From: a virus
Taxonomy: Duplodnaviria > Heunggongvirae > Uroviricota > Caudoviricetes
Strand: one strand, 5' to 3'
Virus record (IMG/VR): IMGVR_UViG_2778261280_000005
Coordinates: 1 to 40,563 of that record
DNA length: 40,563 nt
Made by a program: the position numbers and the translations under genes. The notes beneath the pieces were generated by a model. That model was not told the DNA's origin. It searched no databases and saw only the letters and a list, made by a program, of their open reading frames with translations. Positions 1 to 40,563 of the stretch are shown in pieces. Within the stretch, counting starts at the first letter, position 1; each line of letters begins with the position of its first letter.

Positions 1-1248
1 ATGGCACTGAATATTCCATTCAGAAATGCGTACTATCGTTTTGCATCCAGTTACTCATTTCTCTTTTTTATTTCCTGGTCGCTGTGGTGGTCGTTATACG
101 CTATTTGGCTGAAAGGACATCTAGGGTTGACAGGGACGGAATTAGGTACACTTTATTCGGTCAACCAGTTTACCAGCATTCTATTTATGATGTTCTACGG
201 CATCGTTCAGGATAAACTCGGTCTGAAGAAACCGCTCATCTGGTGTATGAGTTTCATCCTGGTCTTGACCGGACCGTTTATGATTTACGTTTATGAACCG
301 TTACTGCAAAGCAATTTTTCTGTAGGTCTAATTCTGGGGGCGCTATTTTTTGGCTTGGGGTATCTGGCGGGATGCGGTTTGCTTGATAGCTTCACCGAAA
401 AAATGGCGCGAAATTTTCATTTCGAATATGGAACAGCGCGCGCCTGGGGATCTTTTGGCTATGCTATTGGCGCGTTCTTTGCCGGCATATTTTTTAGTAT
501 CAGTCCCCATATCAACTTCTGGTTGGTCTCGCTATTTGGCGCTGTATTTATGATGATCAACATGCGTTTTAAAGATAAGGATCACCAGTGCGTAGCGGCA
601 GATGCGGGAGGGGTAAAAAAAGAGGATTTTATCGCAGTTTTCAAGGATCGAAACTTCTGGGTTTTCGTCATATTTATTGTGGGGACGTGGTCTTTCTATA
701 ACATTTTTGATCAACAACTTTTTCCTGTCTTTTATGCAGGTTTATTCGAATCACACGATGTAGGAACGCGCCTGTATGGTTATCTCAACTCATTCCAGGT
801 GGTACTCGAAGCGCTGTGCATGGCGATTATTCCTTTCTTTGTGAATCGGGTAGGGCCAAAAAATGCATTACTTATCGGAGTTGTGATTATGGCGTTGCGT
901 ATCCTTTCCTGCGCGCTGTTCGTTAACCCCTGGATTATTTCATTAGTGAAGTTGTTACATGCCATTGAGGTTCCACTTTGTGTCATATCCGTCTTCAAAT
1001 ACAGCGTGGCAAACTTTGATAAGCGCCTGTCGTCGACGATCTTTCTGATTGGTTTTCAAATTGCCAGTTCGCTTGGGATTGTGCTGCTTTCAACGCCGAC
1101 TGGGATACTCTTTGACCACGCAGGCTACCAGACAGTTTTCTTCGCAATTTCGGGTATTGTCTGCCTGATGTTGCTATTTGGCATTTTCTTCTTGAGTAAA
1201 AAACGCGAGCAAATAGTTATGGAAACGCCTGTACCTTCAGCAATATAG
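1..1248 (+). CDS. cscB: Sucrose:H+ symporter, LacY-family MFS permease (host gene)
   Basis: 415-aa ORF with ATG at nt 1; strongly hydrophobic multi-TM protein; N-terminus MALNIPFRNAYYRF... matches my recollection of E. coli CscB; not database-verified. Confidence 0.75.
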   Translation: MALNIPFRNAYYRFASSYSFLFFISWSLWWSLYAIWLKGHLGLTGTELGTLYSVNQFTSILFMMFYGIVQDKLGLKKPLIWCMSFILVLTGPFMIYVYEPLLQSNFSVGLILGALFFGLGYLAGCGLLDSFTEKMARNFHFEYGTARAWGSFGYAIGAFFAGIFFSISPHINFWLVSLFGAVFMMINMRFKDKDHQCVAADAGGVKKEDFIAVFKDRNFWVFVIFIVGTWSFYNIFDQQLFPVFYAGLFESHDVGTRLYGYLNSFQVVLEALCMAIIPFFVNRVGPKNALLIGVVIMALRILSCALFVNPWIISLVKLLHAIEVPLCVISVFKYSVANFDKRLSSTIFLIGFQIASSLGIVLLSTPTGILFDHAGYQTVFFAISGIVCLMLLFGIFFLSKKREQIVMETPVPSAI

Positions 1249-1689
1249 ACGTAAACTTTTTCCGGTTGTTGTCGATAGCTCTATATCCCTCAACCGGAAA
1301 ATAATAATAGTAAAATGCTTAGCCCTGCTAATAATCGCCTAATCCAAACGCCTCATTCATGTTCTGGTACAGTCGCTCAAATGTACTTCAGATGCGCGGT
1401 TCGCTGATTTCCAGGACATTGTCGTCATTCAGTGACCTGTCCCGTGTATCACGGTCCTGCGAATTCATCAAGGAATGCATTGCGGAGTGAAGTATCGAGT
1501 CACGCCATATTTCGCTATCAGGATTCTGTGTGATGGTTACATCGCCCGGCCCAGGGCTGTTTAGTCATCAGCGCTTTCTGACAGTGCTGAGATTTCAACC
1601 TGTTGCAGTAAAAATGAGTAGATATAAGGCAAGTGTGCTGCCAAACCCATCTTTTACGGGGTGAAGGTAGATTTCGTTTGAAGGGTATC

Positions 1690-1704
1690 TGGTGTCCCCT
1701 GCAG
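1690..1704 (-). other. Putative att core: 15 bp identical to 3' end of tRNA-Arg (argW) including CCA
   Basis: tggtgtcccctgcag is the reverse complement of CTGCAGGGGACACCA, the argW 3' end as I recall it; sits at the host/phage transition between cscB flank and xis. Confidence 0.5.
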
Positions 1705-33564: not shown

Positions 33565-35561
33565 TGGCTAAAGCATGGAAAGATGTTATCGCCTCTCCAC
33601 AGTATCAGGCGTTAGCACCAGAACAAAAAGCGCAGGCTCAGGAGCAATACTTCAATGAAGTCGTGGCCCCGCAAGCCGGAGAAAATGCAGAGCAGGCTAA
33701 GCAAGCTTTCTATGCTGCCTATCCATTGCCATCTGTGCAGCCAGTGGAGACACAACAACCATTAGCACAGCAACAACCACAGCAAAGTGGATTTATGTCT
33801 GATCTTGGCGAAGCAGTAAGAGAGACTGGTCGCGGACTGGTGCAGGCTGGCGTGAACGTGGCAAACATACCTGCATCAGTTGCCGATGCTGTAACAAGTG
33901 CGGCGGCATGGGCCGGCGGTAAACTCGGTATTGGCGATGGAACATACCAACCAGCGCCACGAGTAACAACGCAGGGATTGGAGCAGGACTTTGGCCTTCA
34001 GCAAGGTGCGCTGACTCCACAAACGACAGAGGGAAGGGTATTTGCTGAAGCATTGCCTTACCTCACTCCTGCTGGCGTTGAGAGAGCGGCAGCACAGGCA
34101 CCAACACTTGCTGGTCGAATTGCTCAGGGGGCAACTCGCCTTCTCGCTGAAAACGCAGTTGGATCACTTGCTGCAAATAGTGCGAAAGATGATGCGGAAG
34201 CACTCGCCACCGATTTAGGCGTTGGTGTACTTGCTGGCGGTGCTATTAACGCTGCTGGACGTGGATTAGGTGCTGCTTATCGTGGCGTTCGTGGTGCTAT
34301 CACGCCAGAAGCGCAGCAGGCTATCAGATTTGCAGAGCGTGAAGGAGTTCCTCTGCACACCACAGACCTGTTACAACCCACTTCCCGCGTCGGAAAAATG
34401 GCGCAGACTACAGCAGAAAATATCCCTCTGGCTGGCACAAGCGGAATGAGAGCAACGCAACAGGAAGCGAGAAGCCAGTTGGTGCAGAGATTTGCCGATA
34501 AATTCGGTGAGTATGATCCAGCGGTTATTATTGACAGCCTTAAAGCGAAAACATCAGGAATTCGTCGTGCCGCCGGTAATCGACTGGAGCAGGTTCAGAA
34601 TGCTATGGCGGGAGTCAATATCCAGCCTGCGCGAGCAATTCAGCAGATTGATACTGAGATATCTAATCTGCAGAAGCTTGGTAAGGTAGCTGATAACGAG
34701 ACAATTTCAAAACTTCAGTCATATCGTGATGAGCTTGTTCGCAATGCTGGCCCTGATGGTCCGGTAAATCTGGATTTGAAGCAATTAAGCGACCTGCGCA
34801 GCCAGTTCAGAATGGACGTGAAGGGTGAGCGACCAGTGTTACCAAACCGTTCAGATGCTGCCATTCAGCGCGTTTACAAGGCAATGACTGACGATATCAA
34901 TGGTGCCATTGGTCAGAATCTTGGCAACGATACTCTCCGTAAATATCAGCAGGCCAATGCCGTCTATGCTGACGAAGCTGCGAAACTAAAGAATACCAGG
35001 CTGAAGAATGTTCTCATGAAAGGCGATCTGACGCCGGAAGTTGTCAACAACATGCTATTCAGCAAGAACAAATCGGAAATTAAGACTCTGTATAACTCAG
35101 TTGGTCGTGTTGGCAGGGCGCAAATGCGCAATGGCATCATTGGAAAGGCGATGGAGAAATCAGGTGGTTCCCCTGACCAGTTCCTTCGGCAGCTTAACAT
35201 CCTGCAAAACCAGACTGGCATCACATTTAAAGGTCAGGAAGCCGCTTATCTGAAAGGATTGAAAAACTACCTGCAATCCACGCAGCAGGCTGCAAAAGCG
35301 GCAGTAACAACACCAACAGGGCAGCAAACCATCCCGTTCATTATCGGGTATGGGACGGCAATGAACCCGGCGACAACTGGCGCAGCGGTAAGCTACGGAC
35401 TTCTTACTCGCGCCTATGAGAGCGAGCCATTCAGAAATGCAATGCTCCGAATGGCAAACACCCCACGCGGATCAACAGCGTTTGAGAAAGCCATGCAGCA
35501 GGCGCAAAAGGCCATTAACGCCCTGACTCAAGGTGCCAAGTCTGATGCGTTGTCAGAATAG
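33564..35561 (+). CDS. Ejection protein, P22 gp16-type
   Basis: 665 aa, position and composition. Confidence 0.8.
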   Translation: MAKAWKDVIASPQYQALAPEQKAQAQEQYFNEVVAPQAGENAEQAKQAFYAAYPLPSVQPVETQQPLAQQQPQQSGFMSDLGEAVRETGRGLVQAGVNVANIPASVADAVTSAAAWAGGKLGIGDGTYQPAPRVTTQGLEQDFGLQQGALTPQTTEGRVFAEALPYLTPAGVERAAAQAPTLAGRIAQGATRLLAENAVGSLAANSAKDDAEALATDLGVGVLAGGAINAAGRGLGAAYRGVRGAITPEAQQAIRFAEREGVPLHTTDLLQPTSRVGKMAQTTAENIPLAGTSGMRATQQEARSQLVQRFADKFGEYDPAVIIDSLKAKTSGIRRAAGNRLEQVQNAMAGVNIQPARAIQQIDTEISNLQKLGKVADNETISKLQSYRDELVRNAGPDGPVNLDLKQLSDLRSQFRMDVKGERPVLPNRSDAAIQRVYKAMTDDINGAIGQNLGNDTLRKYQQANAVYADEAAKLKNTRLKNVLMKGDLTPEVVNNMLFSKNKSEIKTLYNSVGRVGRAQMRNGIIGKAMEKSGGSPDQFLRQLNILQNQTGITFKGQEAAYLKGLKNYLQSTQQAAKAAVTTPTGQQTIPFIIGYGTAMNPATTGAAVSYGLLTRAYESEPFRNAMLRMANTPRGSTAFEKAMQQAQKAINALTQGAKSDALSE

Positions 35562-35630
35562 CTTCGCAAACACCAGGAACGTGCAAAAACCAAATATGTA
35601 GAACGCAATATTCAGCATGTCTCTTTGCAT
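35553..35630 (-). CDS. Small hydrophobic peptide (25 aa) downstream of mnt
   Basis: MQRDMLNIAFYIFGFCTFLVFAKLF; ATG 35630 seven nt after GGAGGA; 3' end overlaps the gp16 stop region; speculative. Confidence 0.25.
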   Translation of the reverse strand: MQRDMLNIAFYIFGFCTFLVFAKLF

Positions 35631-35650
35631 AAATCCTCCGTAACTGATAG

Positions 35651-35944
35651 TTAGCTGCTGTCTTTTTTATATAGCTCTTTGAGCGTATCAAAGACAATTT
35701 TCTTAACCATATCAGATTGTTGTTCTGCCATACGCTCTGCATCGTCAATGTAAACTGATGCAGAGCTTTGTTTAGCCAATGATTCTTCAATCGCTGCAAT
35801 TATCTCTGAGTTCAGAGACCTGTTATTCATCTTCGCACGCTGTTTAATTTTCGCGTGGAGTTCATGCGGAAGTCTCAAGTGAAACTGCGCCTCGTCGTAT
35901 TTGCTGTACATCCTTGATGCCTCACCAGTTGGGTGGAATGGCAT
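35651..35944 (-). CDS. mnt: Mnt-like ribbon-helix-helix repressor
   Basis: C-terminal ...DAERMAEQQSDMVKKIVFDTLKELYKK matches P22 Mnt ...DAERLADEQSELVKKMVFDTLKDLYKK (recollection); start may be ATG 35944 or 35911. Confidence 0.7.
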   Translation of the reverse strand: MPFHPTGEASRMYSKYDEAQFHLRLPHELHAKIKQRAKMNNRSLNSEIIAAIEESLAKQSSASVYIDDAERMAEQQSDMVKKIVFDTLKELYKKDSS

Positions 35945-36032
35945 CGTAACCTACTGGATAAATACTCAATAGTACCATTTCGGTATGCAATCACATCATG
36001 GTTGCATCATATCATTCGTCTGGAGCAATGAA

Positions 36033-37961
36033 ATGTCAGATATCACCGCAAATGTTGTGGTAAGCATGCCTTCGCAACTCTTCACTATGGCTCGTTCTTT
36101 TAAAGCCGTAGCCAATGGCAAAATTTATATCGGTAAAATTGACACGGACCCTGTAAATCCTGAAAACCAGATTCAGGTTTATGTGGAGAACGAAGACGGT
36201 TCTCACGTTCCTGTTGCACAGCCAATCATCATTAACTCTGCTGGATATCCTGTATATAACGGACAGATTGCCAAATTCGTAACTGTGCAAGGCCATTCTA
36301 TGGCTGTGTACGATGCGTACGGTGCGCAGCAGTTTTATTTTCCAAATGTGCTGAAGTATGACCCTGATCAGTTACGGAATGATTTATCCAGCGGATCAAA
36401 TAATCTCGGTGACAACCTTGTTGCTGTAAAGCAGCCATTCCCTCTGGTGATGCAAAGAACGCAACATGATTTCAACGCAGATTATATAAATGTCAAGGAT
36501 TGGGGTGCAAAAGGGGACGGTGTAACAGATGACACCAATGCCATCGACGCCGCGTGTGCAGCATTAACAGGAACTAGTTTAGTCACTAACTTCCGTAGAC
36601 TGTACTTACCGCATGGTACATATATCTACAATGGGGCGGGTATCACTCTGCCGAGTGGGACCACTATTTGCGGGGAAGATTTATTCACAATAATCGACGC
36701 CTCGAATAATGCCAACTCAGGATATTTAGTAACCCTGGTAGGATTTGGAGCGCGACTAGAAACACTACGCTTAAAAGGGAATGCAAGTAATGCTAACCTT
36801 AAGGGGATTTCTAGCGCGTATAACTCGGATAATGGCGGTGTTGTAGACGCAATACTTGAAGACTTCCACTACGGTATGGATATTGATAAATGTTGGTACT
36901 CTGTGTACCAAAATATCCGTTTCCGTCGTAGTGGCTCATCTGTGGTGCTAACAGGATCACATATCCGAATTGGCTACAATCAGCCAACAAAGGAAGTCAA
37001 CAACGTTAACTTCTCAAATATATGGATGACAGGGCAGCAAGCACATTCAGTGACCGTACATTGCAAAACTCAAACTCTTACATGGAATGAGTGCTCGTTC
37101 GAAACTAAAGGTCAGTCACGCATATACTTTGCTACTGCAGAATCAGTAAACACGTTTACCCTCAACTCTTGTTATATCGAGGGGGATGTAGAATCCTCGT
37201 CTTACCCATATTTGGTAGAGGGGCAGACTGTAAATCAGGTAATAACCTGTAACGATTGCATGTTCCGTTTAGGAAACACAGCTAGCTCACTTGGTAAGAA
37301 CATCACTATCAATTTAAACGGCGGTTGGTCCAATAGCCCTGACGTATCTTTACAGTCTAATAATACCAAAGTTTGGATGACTAACTATCTTTACTTAGGC
37401 GCATTCTCTGACGCCCCTAATTACAGTCAGTCTGGCGATTACGACGGCTCAGCTATGCACAGTGCTTCGGTGATGATGTCTCCAAGACCAATGGATATAA
37501 GGGATTGGAATTCAGTGATACCTCATTACGTAAATTACAAGACACACCAATCGACCTCACCAGTTGATATATTCAAGATTTACATTCCAACCGGATCAAA
37601 TCCGAGACAAATGCTTCTAAATATAAAAGCATTAACAAAAAGCACAAGTGAAACATATATTCAGGGAGTTGAGGAATATATGTTAGCGATAACATTGCCA
37701 GAAACTTCAACTCCAGGAACTGGGACATACGTAGCAAAATTACACTCTTCATCAAAAGATAACGCAACATTGCTTTCTGATATGGCGTTTAGTATCACAT
37801 CAAATGGTTATGACAGCACAACTGATGCTTACGAATACACTATTTCTCATAGCGTTTCTAATAGCACCAGGCTTGGAACTACTACATATGTTATGAATGG
37901 AGTATTCACGTTAAATGGTTTATCTACAACAACACCTAAATGGAGAATTCGTCGATTGTAA
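36033..37961 (+). CDS. Tailspike: P22-type head-binding N-domain plus divergent beta-helix receptor-binding domain
   Basis: 642 aa from ATG 36033 (GGAG RBS); N-terminus [68 protein letters not shown]... matches the P22/Sf6 tailspike head-binding domain; remainder unlike P22, with a pectate-lyase-like motif [19 protein letters not shown]. Confidence 0.85.
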
Positions 37962-37998
37962 AAAGACTTTCGCCCTCTTAAGAGGGCGAAAGTCTTTT
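37961..37998. terminator. Bidirectional rho-independent terminator between convergent tailspike and acetylase genes
   Basis: Perfect 17-bp inverted repeat aaaagactttcgccctc / gagggcgaaagtctttt with 4-nt loop, with A-run and T-run on the two arms. Confidence 0.75.
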
Positions 37999-38995
37999 AA
38001 CAGAAGTATCGTACTAAAGGGATTCTTTTCAAAATATACGAAACACATAAAGAGGCAATAAACATAAAAATACACACCATTGGTAAGAAGTAAGTCATGG
38101 AATTTGTCCAACTTAGTTGCCATACATGCTGTTTTAATGGGATTAATAATGCTGGGTGAATGCAATAAATAGCAAATGTATATTTGCTTATATTGTGAGA
38201 TATTTTGTTTAAATAAATGGAATTAATTTTTGTACATAAAAGTAGCAGTGAACATGCAGCAATTAATGTATTTAATGCATAGTTATCTAGAAATGCTTGG
38301 CTAGGTTTTCCTATAAAATGTGAATAAAAACTATTCATTAATGCTGTGAATATAATTGCCAGCATGAATACCGATAATAATAAAAATCTGTTGTTAAATT
38401 TATCTTTTATATCATAGATATACTTTCCAATAAACATATACCAACTAAGTGTTGTCATTGAGTCTAGATTGAACTTAGATTGTAAATTAATACCTGTTAG
38501 TGATTTAAATACATTTAATTGAAAGAGTAATGCCAATGAAATTAATAGTAATATTTTCTGTTTCTCACTCATACTATAGTATGTGAAAGATATTACAGGG
38601 GTTATTGCATACATTCCTAGTAGGAAGTACAAATACCAAAGGTGGTACATGGCTTGCCCATTAAATACTTTGCTAATAAATCCTGTAAATGTAGGGTCAT
38701 TATTATATGCGATATAGTAAAAAGCAGACCATGCAAATAATACCGCTGTGGCTTTTGGTAATTTTTTCTTGTAAAACTTAAATGGTTTAATATTCTCCTT
38801 TAGCAAAAGGATGCCTGATATCATAATGAAAATAGGAACTGCGCATCTTGATAAAGAGTTATAAAAGTTAACTACTTCCCATACTGGTTGGAATTTATAA
38901 TTCCAGTATGCGGTAACGTGCGTCATTACTACAAGGAAGCAAGACACTGTTCTTGCAAGATCTATATCGTAAATACGTCCTGCTACGTTACTCAT
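37997..38995 (-). CDS. oac: O-antigen acetyltransferase (acyltransferase-3 family integral membrane protein)
   Basis: 332-aa multi-TM protein in the tailspike-oac-int arrangement described for Shigella phage Sf6 (recollection); AT-rich. Confidence 0.75.
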   Translation of the reverse strand: MSNVAGRIYDIDLARTVSCFLVVMTHVTAYWNYKFQPVWEVVNFYNSLSRCAVPIFIMISGILLLKENIKPFKFYKKKLPKATAVLFAWSAFYYIAYNNDPTFTGFISKVFNGQAMYHLWYLYFLLGMYAITPVISFTYYSMSEKQKILLLISLALLFQLNVFKSLTGINLQSKFNLDSMTTLSWYMFIGKYIYDIKDKFNNRFLLLSVFMLAIIFTALMNSFYSHFIGKPSQAFLDNYALNTLIAACSLLLLCTKINSIYLNKISHNISKYTFAIYCIHPALLIPLKQHVWQLSWTNSMTYFLPMVCIFMFIASLCVSYILKRIPLVRYFC

Positions 38996-39405
38996 TATAT
39001 GATAATCCTTAATGTTAAAAATTGTATAAAACAGTCAATTTTAAAAGTCATGTAGTTTATCATTACTGCGAAACTTGATCGACCATCATGTTTAAACATA
39101 CTGCATCAAAAGAAAAATGAATGGTAGAGTATAACGTTTGCACTTACAGAGAAACTTTATGATTAAGCGCCATGGTTCATACCATCAAAGAATCCTGATA
39201 ATATGAAAATGAAAAGATGGAGATGCTGTCAGATAACAAATCTCTGATGCGTATCTGGCGGCATTCTTAGTGATAGTTTGTATTATCAAAGATAATATCT
39301 CTAGTGAGTTTGATGATGATTATATCATGCAAGGCAAAATTGATGCACACAAAGCTTTTCACTGGATTGCTAGGCTTTGTGCTCTTTGGTAGTGGTTAAG
39401 GCGGA

Positions 39406-40563
39406 TCACTCCACCTTTTCATCAAGCCAATCTGCCCACCACTGCATCATTTCTCTGCGCTTATCGAGATACTGAGCATGGTTGTAAATTCCACGCACAG
39501 ATCCGCCGTTGGCATGTGCCAGTTGCACTTCAATAGCGTCAGCAGGCCATTCGTGCTCGTTCATAATCGTGCTGAATTCATGCCTGAATCCGTGACCGCT
39601 TTCCAGACCTTCATAGCCGATTTGTTTGATCACAAGTAGCACCGCGTTCTCGCAGATTGGCTTCTTCTTATCGTTGCGCCCGGCAAAAACAAACTCTGAT
39701 ACTGGTTTGGTGATTGAGCTTAGCGTAGTGAGAAGTTCAACCACCTGGTCTGACATCGGGACCACATGAATCTTTCGGCCCTTCATCACACTGGCGTCGA
39801 TGGTGATAATCCTGTTTTCAAAATCGACGTTCTTCCATAGCATGGAACGAAGCTCTTTTGTTCTTAGGGCTGTGTAGCGTAAAACTTTGGTCGCAATGAG
39901 CGATACGATACTTCCTGAAAATGTTGCCAGTGCTTTGTTGAATGCAGGCATCTGGTCTGCTGGAAGGAACGGGAAGTTCTTCTTGCGGTATCCTTTCATG
40001 GCGTCTGCAAGGTCAGGTGCCGGGTTATATTTAGCCCTTCCGGTGACAATAGCGTAACGAAAAACCTCGCCGCATCTTCTGCGGGCTTTGTTGGCTCGCT
40101 CCATTGCACCGCGATCTTCAAATCTGCGGATTACTTCCAGCAGTTGCATCGGCTCAATATCCTGAATTTCAAGGCCGCCGATGATAGGTAAAATGTCGTC
40201 ATCAAACATTTTTGCAAGTTCAGTCGCATACCCTACAGACCAGACTTGCTTCTTGTGCTCGTACCATTCCTTGTAAATCGCACTAAATGAATTGTTGTTA
40301 GACGAAGCTTTTTTCGCCTTTACCGGATCGATGCCAACCGAGATGTCTTTCCTCGCAGTCCATGCCTTATCCCTTGCCTCCTGCAAAGTCATTAGCGGAT
40401 ATTTTCCTACGGTCAGGATTTTCTCCTTACCGTCAATCTTGTAGCGAAGCTGCCATACCTTTTTCCCGGATACAGGGACATAAAGGTACAGGCCATTACC
40501 ATCGAGAAGGCGGTATGGTTTTTCTTTCGGCTTTGCTGCTTCAATCTGCTTAACGGTGAGCAT
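39406..40563 (-). CDS. int: Tyrosine integrase (P4/IntS-type, tRNA-targeting)
   Basis: 385 aa; start codon is the last 3 nt of the window; C-terminal catalytic region with ...HGFRHEF... and ...RGIYNHAQY... (R/H-x-x-R/Y motifs). Confidence 0.9.
   Translation of the reverse strand: MLTVKQIEAAKPKEKPYRLLDGNGLYLYVPVSGKKVWQLRYKIDGKEKILTVGKYPLMTLQEARDKAWTARKDISVGIDPVKAKKASSNNNSFSAIYKEWYEHKKQVWSVGYATELAKMFDDDILPIIGGLEIQDIEPMQLLEVIRRFEDRGAMERANKARRRCGEVFRYAIVTGRAKYNPAPDLADAMKGYRKKNFPFLPADQMPAFNKALATFSGSIVSLIATKVLRYTALRTKELRSMLWKNVDFENRIITIDASVMKGRKIHVVPMSDQVVELLTTLSSITKPVSEFVFAGRNDKKKPICENAVLLVIKQIGYEGLESGHGFRHEFSTIMNEHEWPADAIEVQLAHANGGSVRGIYNHAQYLDKRREMMQWWADWLDEKVE

Follow-up and report, generated by a model that had tools for sequence, protein, structure and literature searches.

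An uncharacterised tailspike receptor-binding module paired with a putative O-antigen acyltransferase in an Sf6-like prophage of Escherichia coli

Near the right end of a 40,563-nucleotide (nt) viral sequence (IMG/VR record IMGVR_UViG_2778261280_000005, positions 1 to 40,563, Caudoviricetes; the whole stretch is hereafter called the window) the gene of a P22-type tailspike is followed, on the opposite strand, by a gene for a membrane acyltransferase of the acyltransferase-3 family (AT3) and then by an integrase gene, which raises the question of whether the products of the two neighbouring genes act on the same surface polysaccharide. Judged by comparison with related phages, about 2.9 kb (roughly 36372-39300) between the head-binding domain of the tailspike and the integrase is replaced by an imported cassette which carries the receptor-binding module (RBD) of the tailspike and AT3. 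We consider it probable, with considerable confidence, that the tailspike is specific for a single type of O-antigen, which it probably also cleaves, and that AT3 acylates this O-antigen in the lysogen, thus blocking the same and related tailspikes and altering the serotype.

The imported cassette and its edges

The features on which the argument depends are the following.

35985..37961, plus strand, tailspike open reading frame (ORF) as given in the open reading frame list
36033..37961, plus strand, likely tailspike gene, with ATG at 36033 and GGAG 8 nt upstream
36033..36371, plus strand, N-terminal head-binding (particle-attachment) domain of the tailspike, amino acids (aa) 1-113, a conserved P22-like backbone
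36372..37961, plus strand, receptor-binding module of the tailspike, aa 114-642, made up of a right-handed beta-helix and, C-terminal to it, a beta-rich domain
37961..37998, no strand, perfect palindromic hairpin with a 17-bp stem and a TTAA loop, between the stop codons of the two convergent genes
37997..38995, minus strand, AT3-only membrane acyltransferase of 332 aa, 'group A' (Pfam PF01757 Acyl_transf_3)
39015..39106, minus strand, conserved stretch upstream of the AT3 start, 71-77% blastn identity to two Enterobacter hormaechei loci (L015 and L016)
39107..39329, no strand, AT-rich spacer of foreign origin without an ORF of note, from alignment to E. hormaechei

The segment coding for the head-binding domain is 87-96% identical at the nucleotide level to many E. 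coli and Shigella P22-like phages, and this homology ends at window positions 36370-36391, so the 3' edge of the domain is, by alignment, the left recombination boundary of the cassette; a 'bsq1 boundary sequence' is annotated under this match in the CUS-3 record. The imported RBD is joined after ...YDPDQ (aa 113), ahead of the conserved linker LRxxL...G.GD.L..VKQP. On the other side, similarity to the usual E. coli intS loci sets in again at about 39300-39330 (the matches begin at query positions 401-433 of the segment 38900-40563), which places the right boundary there, and no DNA similarity to Sf6 was found between window positions 36374 and 39412. The G+C content is 30% for the AT3 gene (25-30% for the gene together with the spacer), 42% for the tailspike gene and about 50% for the phage body and virion genes.

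The first ~60 nt of the spacer (39107-39170) are a decayed copy of a LexA box and of the start of a 79-aa gene found in E. hormaechei prophages, a scar that points to prophages of this type as the likely source of the entire block. In E. hormaechei (L015, 8095-8140; L016, 9800-9845) the LexA box TACTGTATATGTATACAGT precedes the 79-aa gene beside the modification cassette; it is destroyed in the decayed copy of the window.

Tailspike and its receptor-binding module

The initial annotation described a tailspike of 642 aa starting at 35985; the length stands and the start does not, position 35985 being an upstream in-frame ATG and the ATG at 36033 with its GGAG being the likelier start. From the methionine at 36033, the Pfam Head_binding (PF09008) alignment begins at profile position 1 and covers aa 1-113 of the protein (positions 1-113 of 113, E 7.5e-67), in agreement with the conserved P22-type head-binding domain of about 110 residues noticed at the outset. 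Ejection genes, namely P22_gp7, Inj_translocase and Phage_P22_gp16, are called ahead of the tailspike (L001-L003). In the PDB sequence search the N-domains of P22 and Sf6 match the protein at E 1e-44 to 1e-50, with the P22 tailspike chains matching over aa 2-115 only, which bears out the view that the remainder is unrelated to P22.

That remainder had also been credited with a beta-helix, pectate lyase-like signature, and both lines of evidence point the same way: Pfam Pect-lyase_RHGA_epim covers aa 151-381 (E 9e-13), and an AlphaFold model (26 homologues; predicted local distance difference test, pLDDT, 83) consists of a beta-helix and then a beta-rich C-terminal domain. Acidic residues are invariant in the alignment of the RBD family, and the module is presumed to be the glycan-binding or depolymerase part of the tailspike. 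No characterised or solved relative of the RBD was returned, the PDB sequence search giving the head-binding domain and a weak local resemblance to the Sf6 tailspike over aa 119-250 (E 2.8e-10) only, and the fold searches giving generic beta-helix matches only; the C-terminal domain is therefore not the same as that of any characterised tailspike reached by these sequence and fold searches.

Among deposited phages the RBD was found in one record only, vB_kpnM_D1 of the Guernseyvirinae (76% aa identity). This record (L013, PP107912.1, 'Klebsiella phage') is unannotated and flagged UNVERIFIED_ORG, so its stated Klebsiella host may be unreliable. A literature search found nothing on the specificity of the tailspike of vB_kpnM_D1 or of the Salmonella phage g341c, and a scan of species-representative genomes for RBD relatives gave a single weak irrelevant match. 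In a large protein database the RBD family carries varied N-terminal adaptors (Head_binding, Tail_spike_N, a T7-tail-type domain and others without a Pfam adaptor match), and the hosts of its entries are E. coli, E. albertii, Enterobacter, Cronobacter and Citrobacter, to which the locus look-ups described below add Hafnia.

The acyltransferase

The convergent, AT-rich acyltransferase-3 gene reported initially was readily recovered at 37997..38995 on the minus strand with its 30% G+C; its product aligns with 324 of the 326 positions of the Acyl_transf_3 profile (1-324, E 4.9e-35) and corresponds to the O-acetyltransferases of PHROG 3333, and NCBIfam gave nothing useful for it or for the tailspike. 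AT3 acetylases have an R/K-X10-H motif in the first transmembrane helix (TM1), and an RxxR motif in the first cytoplasmic loop is essential in the acetylase Oac of Sf6 (PMC9558356). The former is present in the window protein as R15-X10-H26, invariant and aligned with the Oac proteins of phiV10 and Sf6. The nearest characterised relative is phiV10 Oac, with 30% identity over 96% of the length. Orthology with Sf6 Oac was considered and ruled out (BLASTP identity 24% over 206 aa, E 0.09), and Sf6 was not returned in a tblastn search of phages with AT3.

The ratio of nonsynonymous to synonymous substitution rates (dN/dS) between AT3 orthologues is about 0.11, from which they are judged to be under purifying selection. 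The enzyme is presumed to be an O-antigen O-acetyltransferase, and the acyl group it moves is most likely acetyl.

Pairing of the module with modifier genes across loci

The neighbourhoods of genes homologous to the RBD or to AT3 were looked up locus by locus, with RBD and AT3 identities given relative to the window.

L014/L015 and L025: E. hormaechei long-tailed prophage and an IMG/VR contig with an identical pair (L025); RBD 65%, orthologous AT3 71%
L008/L009 and L024: Hafnia long-tailed prophage and an IMG/VR contig with an identical pair (L024); RBD 64%, orthologous AT3 68% and two more AT3 genes
L016, L026-L030 and L032: E. hormaechei (L016) and IMG/VR contigs (the others); RBD 53-57%, gtrABC
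L020 and L031: P22-like (L020) and an IMG/VR contig (L031); RBD 56-57%, AT3 'group B'
L018 and L035: Cronobacter dublinensis, P22-like (L018), and an IMG/VR contig with a 99% identical pair (L035); RBD 51%, AT3 'group C'
L013 and L034: Guernseyvirinae phage and an IMG/VR contig; RBD 76% and 51%, respectively, no modifier in the stretch read

Every modifier-bearing locus has its modifier in the same convergent position after the tailspike, with AT3 immediately convergent to the tailspike gene in E. hormaechei and Hafnia. The AT3 groups that accompany the RBDs of lower identity (L018, L020, L031 and L035) are unrelated to that of the window. With E. hormaechei, nucleotide homology is unbroken over window positions 37526-39106, that is, across the 3' end of the RBD, the hairpin, AT3 and the 110 nt upstream of it. 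One RBD clade and one AT3 orthogroup thus occur together on three backbones that are independent of each other and belong to three genera. Of the loci devoid of a modifier, L013 holds no relative of the window AT3 and L034 has replication genes downstream of the tailspike; no integrase was seen in the stretches read, so both look lytic.

AT3 outlives its prophage, being intact in two decayed ones. In CP165188.1 (L039, 7433-12045) all that is left of the prophage is int, the intact AT3 gene and a 423-aa C-terminal tailspike fragment, the remnant abutting IS1 and then the host frc/oxc genes, and the AT3 gene is apparently domesticated. In Enterobacter cloacae (L010/L011, 9572-11332) an orphan AT3 gene (72% aa identity) lies among chromosomal genes together with the last ~300 nt of a tailspike gene; a 48-aa Arc-domain gene is located upstream of it.

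Several AT3 genes may also stand together. Hafnia L009 (7760-10987) has three in tandem by one tailspike, and C. dublinensis L006 (8988-10990) has a 'B then A' tandem, as in Hafnia, within a chromosomal islet around which no phage genes were called.

Intergenic regions

The perfect 17-bp palindrome that had been noticed between the two genes was located at 37961-37998. Its sequence, AAAAGACTTTCGCCCTC-ttaa-GAGGGCGAAAGTCTTTT, touches the stop codons of both genes, A4/T4 runs make up the stem ends, and it folds with a free energy (dG) of -30.9 kcal/mol and a z-score of -7.9, none of 200 shuffled sequences folding equally well. Stem and loop are both self-complementary, hence both transcripts would form the same hairpin. 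The Hafnia and E. hormaechei loci have GC-rich hairpins of other sequence at the same position, and in the records of Sf6 and g341c the equivalent place carries annotated terminators. We infer that the hairpin is presumably a bidirectional intrinsic terminator for both transcripts and that the AT3 promoter likely lies within 39015..39106, a stretch which matches the intergenic region preceding the AT3 gene or gtrA in E. hormaechei prophages. No Rfam family was found within 35500-40563.

The initial annotation placed AT3 next to int; the gene order is as described, but an AT-rich spacer of 410 nt separates the two genes. The signature of gtr-type phase variation, governed by Dam and OxyR, was looked for in this region and is absent, as 38996-39405 contains a single GATC (39077) rather than paired sites. 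This GATC sits in the block AACTTGATCGACC, which is conserved upstream of both AT3 and gtrA cassettes in E. hormaechei.

Proposed mechanism and alternatives

The imported RBD is fused in frame after residue 113, and AT3, convergent to it, comes with an upstream region that belongs to it. As part of the virion, the tailspike trimer would bind and probably cleave one surface polysaccharide, most likely an O-antigen type rare in E. coli, and in the lysogen AT3 would be expressed as a moron and pass an acyl group across the inner membrane onto the same polysaccharide, turning it into a poor substrate for the window tailspike and its relatives. The outcome would be superinfection exclusion, no waste of released virions on lysogens and a change of serotype, and the RBD and its matching mask would tend to stay together when moving between phages. 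Both the identity of the glycan and its masking are what we infer from the genes and their neighbourhoods; the recurrence of the RBD with AT3 across phage types and genera strengthens the proposal of a single O-antigen which is first bound by the phage and later modified by it.

Several points weigh against this proposal. As accessory genes in general settle at the end of the late operon, the mere fact that two genes adjoin there counts for little. The RBDs of Hafnia and E. hormaechei are 85% identical to each other and their AT3s 64%, meaning that the two histories are not strictly congruent; the pair is thus not frozen, and recombination takes place within the cassette even as the pairing is maintained. 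The window AT3 reads K78-L-P-K81 (KxxK) where Sf6 Oac has RxxR, although the basic character is kept. A simple scan found no convincing sigma-70 promoter upstream of AT3, the promoter-like hexamers being weak, and a simple consensus terminator scan does not list the hairpin, which is explained by the T-run sitting within the stem.

An alternative that we consider unlikely is that the linkage is positional only and that AT3, having arrived at a generic landing site, modifies some other glycan (enterobacterial common antigen, ECA; colanic acid; capsule; or an O-antigen which the tailspike does not use) for the benefit of the host. The slot indeed holds varied cargo, with at least three AT3 groups as well as gtrABC, the RBD and AT3 trees disagree, and AT3 persists without a working phage; the spread of related RBDs over at least five genera might point to a glycan that many bacteria have in common, and the ECA acetylase WecH is also AT3-only (PMC9558356). 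A purely positional link is, however, hard to reconcile with the association of one RBD clade with one AT3 orthogroup in three backbones and genera while other RBD clades go with other modifiers, or with DNA homology that crosses both genes. A megablast-level search of 5,426 complete E. coli genomes gave no match to the RBD or to AT3, an absence that is easier to square with a rare serotype than with a glycan as universal as ECA, and gtrABC, which occupies the equivalent slot elsewhere, is a classic O-antigen modifier.

The KxxK residues and the weak promoter-like hexamers would also suit an enzyme that is dead or a cargo that is silent, which seems hardly credible to us given that KxxK is common to all group A orthologues across four genera (residues 76-81 of the window protein being KKKLPK), that purifying selection and a full-length Pfam match speak for function, that the ORF is intact in decayed prophages and that the upstream stretch is conserved. 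The presence of lysine in place of the RxxR arginines in group A may be a compositional effect of a gene with 30% G+C or a real mechanistic variant. A pseudogene, which would have undermined the serotype-conversion reading of the initial annotation, is not what was found: AT3 is full length, keeps R-X10-H and has orthologues under purifying selection.

Beyond the single locus, and more tentatively than the proposal that the tailspike and AT3 act on one O-antigen, an RBD together with its modifier could form a portable 'recognise-and-mask' pair which selection holds together as it passes between temperate phages with short and with long tails, in four genera or more (Escherichia, Enterobacter, Hafnia and Cronobacter). 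AT3 orthogroups A, B and C and gtrABC would be alternative or stacked masks tracking RBD clades, and hosts would domesticate the mask after decay of the prophage. The three AT3 genes of Hafnia and the chromosomal B-A tandem of C. dublinensis beside a clade III RBD carrying AT3-C would be examples of such masks. If this is true, one could tell from the modifier adjoining an RBD by which acetyl or glucosyl group a given tailspike is blocked.

What is new here is a clear case of a tailspike tip and a presumed masking enzyme recurring jointly in short- and long-tailed prophages of different genera. It bears on the prediction of host range in temperate phages, on the O-antigen acetylation variants (serotype factors) of E. 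coli, E. fergusonii, E. albertii, Enterobacter, Hafnia and Cronobacter, and on the choice of tailspikes for typing or therapy that acetylation leaves unblocked.

Comparison with known systems

The gene layout itself is, on comparison of gene orders, already known: it matches that of Sf6, and the part from the tailspike to the convergent acetylase is common to g341c and phiV10, so that the new content appears to be the RBD and AT3 as an uncharacterised pair within a known layout. Sf6 shares with the window a gp16-like gene, the tailspike gene on the plus strand, a terminator (presumed in the window), an AT3-only acetylase and IntS both on the minus strand, and an att site in argW; the head-binding domains are 88% identical at the nucleotide level and the acetylases are of nearly the same size (332 aa in the window and 333 aa in Sf6). 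It differs in its RBD, which is only weakly and locally similar, in an acetylase that is not orthologous to AT3, in an oac-int spacer of about 155 nt compared with 410 nt, and in lacking the Mnt-like gene that precedes the tailspike in the window. O-antigen acetylation by Sf6 hinders the phage's own endorhamnosidase (PMC9558356).

In phiV10, an epsilon15-like phage of E. coli O157, oac is likewise convergent with the tail-fibre/tailspike gene, and according to its record Oac acetylates the O157 antigen and gives superinfection immunity. However, phiV10 is another phage type with another tailspike, its Oac keeps R..R where AT3 has K..K, and 30% identity to this Oac is too low for the acceptor sugar to be deduced from phiV10.

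These two phages also bear on the idea that AT3 creates a receptor, with the tailspike preferring the acylated glycan, or that it mainly blocks competitor phages while leaving the phage's own adsorption unchanged. Some phage receptor-binding proteins, such as that of phage G7C, need O-acetylated O-antigen, and the three AT3 genes of Hafnia and the B-A tandem of C. dublinensis would suit defence against several phage types. Nevertheless, modification acts against the phage's own adsorption in both Sf6 and phiV10, and making its own receptor in a lysogenised cell brings the phage no evident gain, which makes this explanation quite improbable in comparison with masking of the O-antigen used by the tailspike.

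The P22-like Salmonella phage g341c has a tailspike gene, terminators annotated on both strands and a convergent O-antigen acetylase gene, and its tailspike, with a P22-like head-binding domain, is 40% identical to that of the window over aa 1-398. Its RBD differs beyond about aa 400, and its acetylase has 640 aa, approximately twice the length of AT3, and is followed by gtrA; from this length and a note in the record we take it to be of the fused AT3-SGNH type. The long-tailed prophages of E. hormaechei (L014/L015) and Hafnia (L008/L009) have an orthologous RBD and AT3 in the same convergent layout, but their adaptor is Tail_spike_N rather than Head_binding, they possess tape-measure and long-tail genes, and there is no adjacent int. 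In the gtrABC systems of the P22/SfV type the modifier is also found at the tailspike/int end, with glucosylation there and, presumably, acylation in the window. The E. coli phage Kapi1, which also integrates at argW, uses and modifies the O-antigen (PMC8787464).

Integration site and prophage setting

The flanks of the cassette and of the prophage comprise the following features.

39406..40563, minus strand, P4-type tyrosine integrase IntS of 385 aa, conserved backbone (Pfam Arm-DNA-bind_3, Phage_int_M and Phage_integrase)
1690..1704, no strand, attR core, a 15-nt exact match to the argW/attL core
1..1689, no strand, host DNA including a CscB-like permease gene
35651..35944, minus strand, Mnt-like ribbon-helix-helix repressor gene, just upstream of the tailspike and outside the swapped cassette (Pfam Arc and Repressor_Mnt)

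The prophage is Sf6/P22-like and is integrated at argW in E. coli. The integrase is identical to Sf6 Int at 380/384 residues (99%), the argW tRNA-Arg(CCT) gene with the Sf6 att core is located 161 nt past the window end (L002), and phage homology begins at window position 1690. Taken with the Sf6 gene order, the integrase and the argW site vindicate the Sf6-like architecture proposed from the sequence at first reading. The segment 35500-40563 is 100% identical to GCA_002225585.1, and E. coli assemblies contain the exact AT3 sequence within the series fadI-fadL-mlaA-yfdC-[argW]-int-AT3-tailspike-P22-like ejection genes. A literature search on the assembly accession gave nothing on the O-serotype of the host. 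Judged by consecutive protein accessions, six or more other Escherichia assemblies, E. fergusonii among them, have the AT3-tailspike pair as well; carriers of the cassette include GCA_054489945.1, GCA_028140105.1 and GCA_046517385.1, and there are carriers in E. albertii too. An attP site between the AT3 gene and int was considered and is ruled out by this integrated arrangement: as int, AT3 and the tailspike gene adjoin in the integrated state next to argW, att must lie beyond int, as it does in Sf6.

The Mnt-like gene is solitary, lying between the gp16-like gene and the tailspike gene without arc or ant. Another carrier of the same cassette (L038) has a full immI region with arc, a Bro-N/P22_AR_C antirepressor gene and SieA.

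The permease encoded in the host DNA (1..1248, 415 aa) is a CscB-like sucrose permease of the LacY family (LacY_symp, E 1e-193). Two genomes deposited as phages, vB_EcoP-683R2 and vB_EcoP-611R6, match the window from position 1 and annotate a sucrose permease, so these two records may include host flank.

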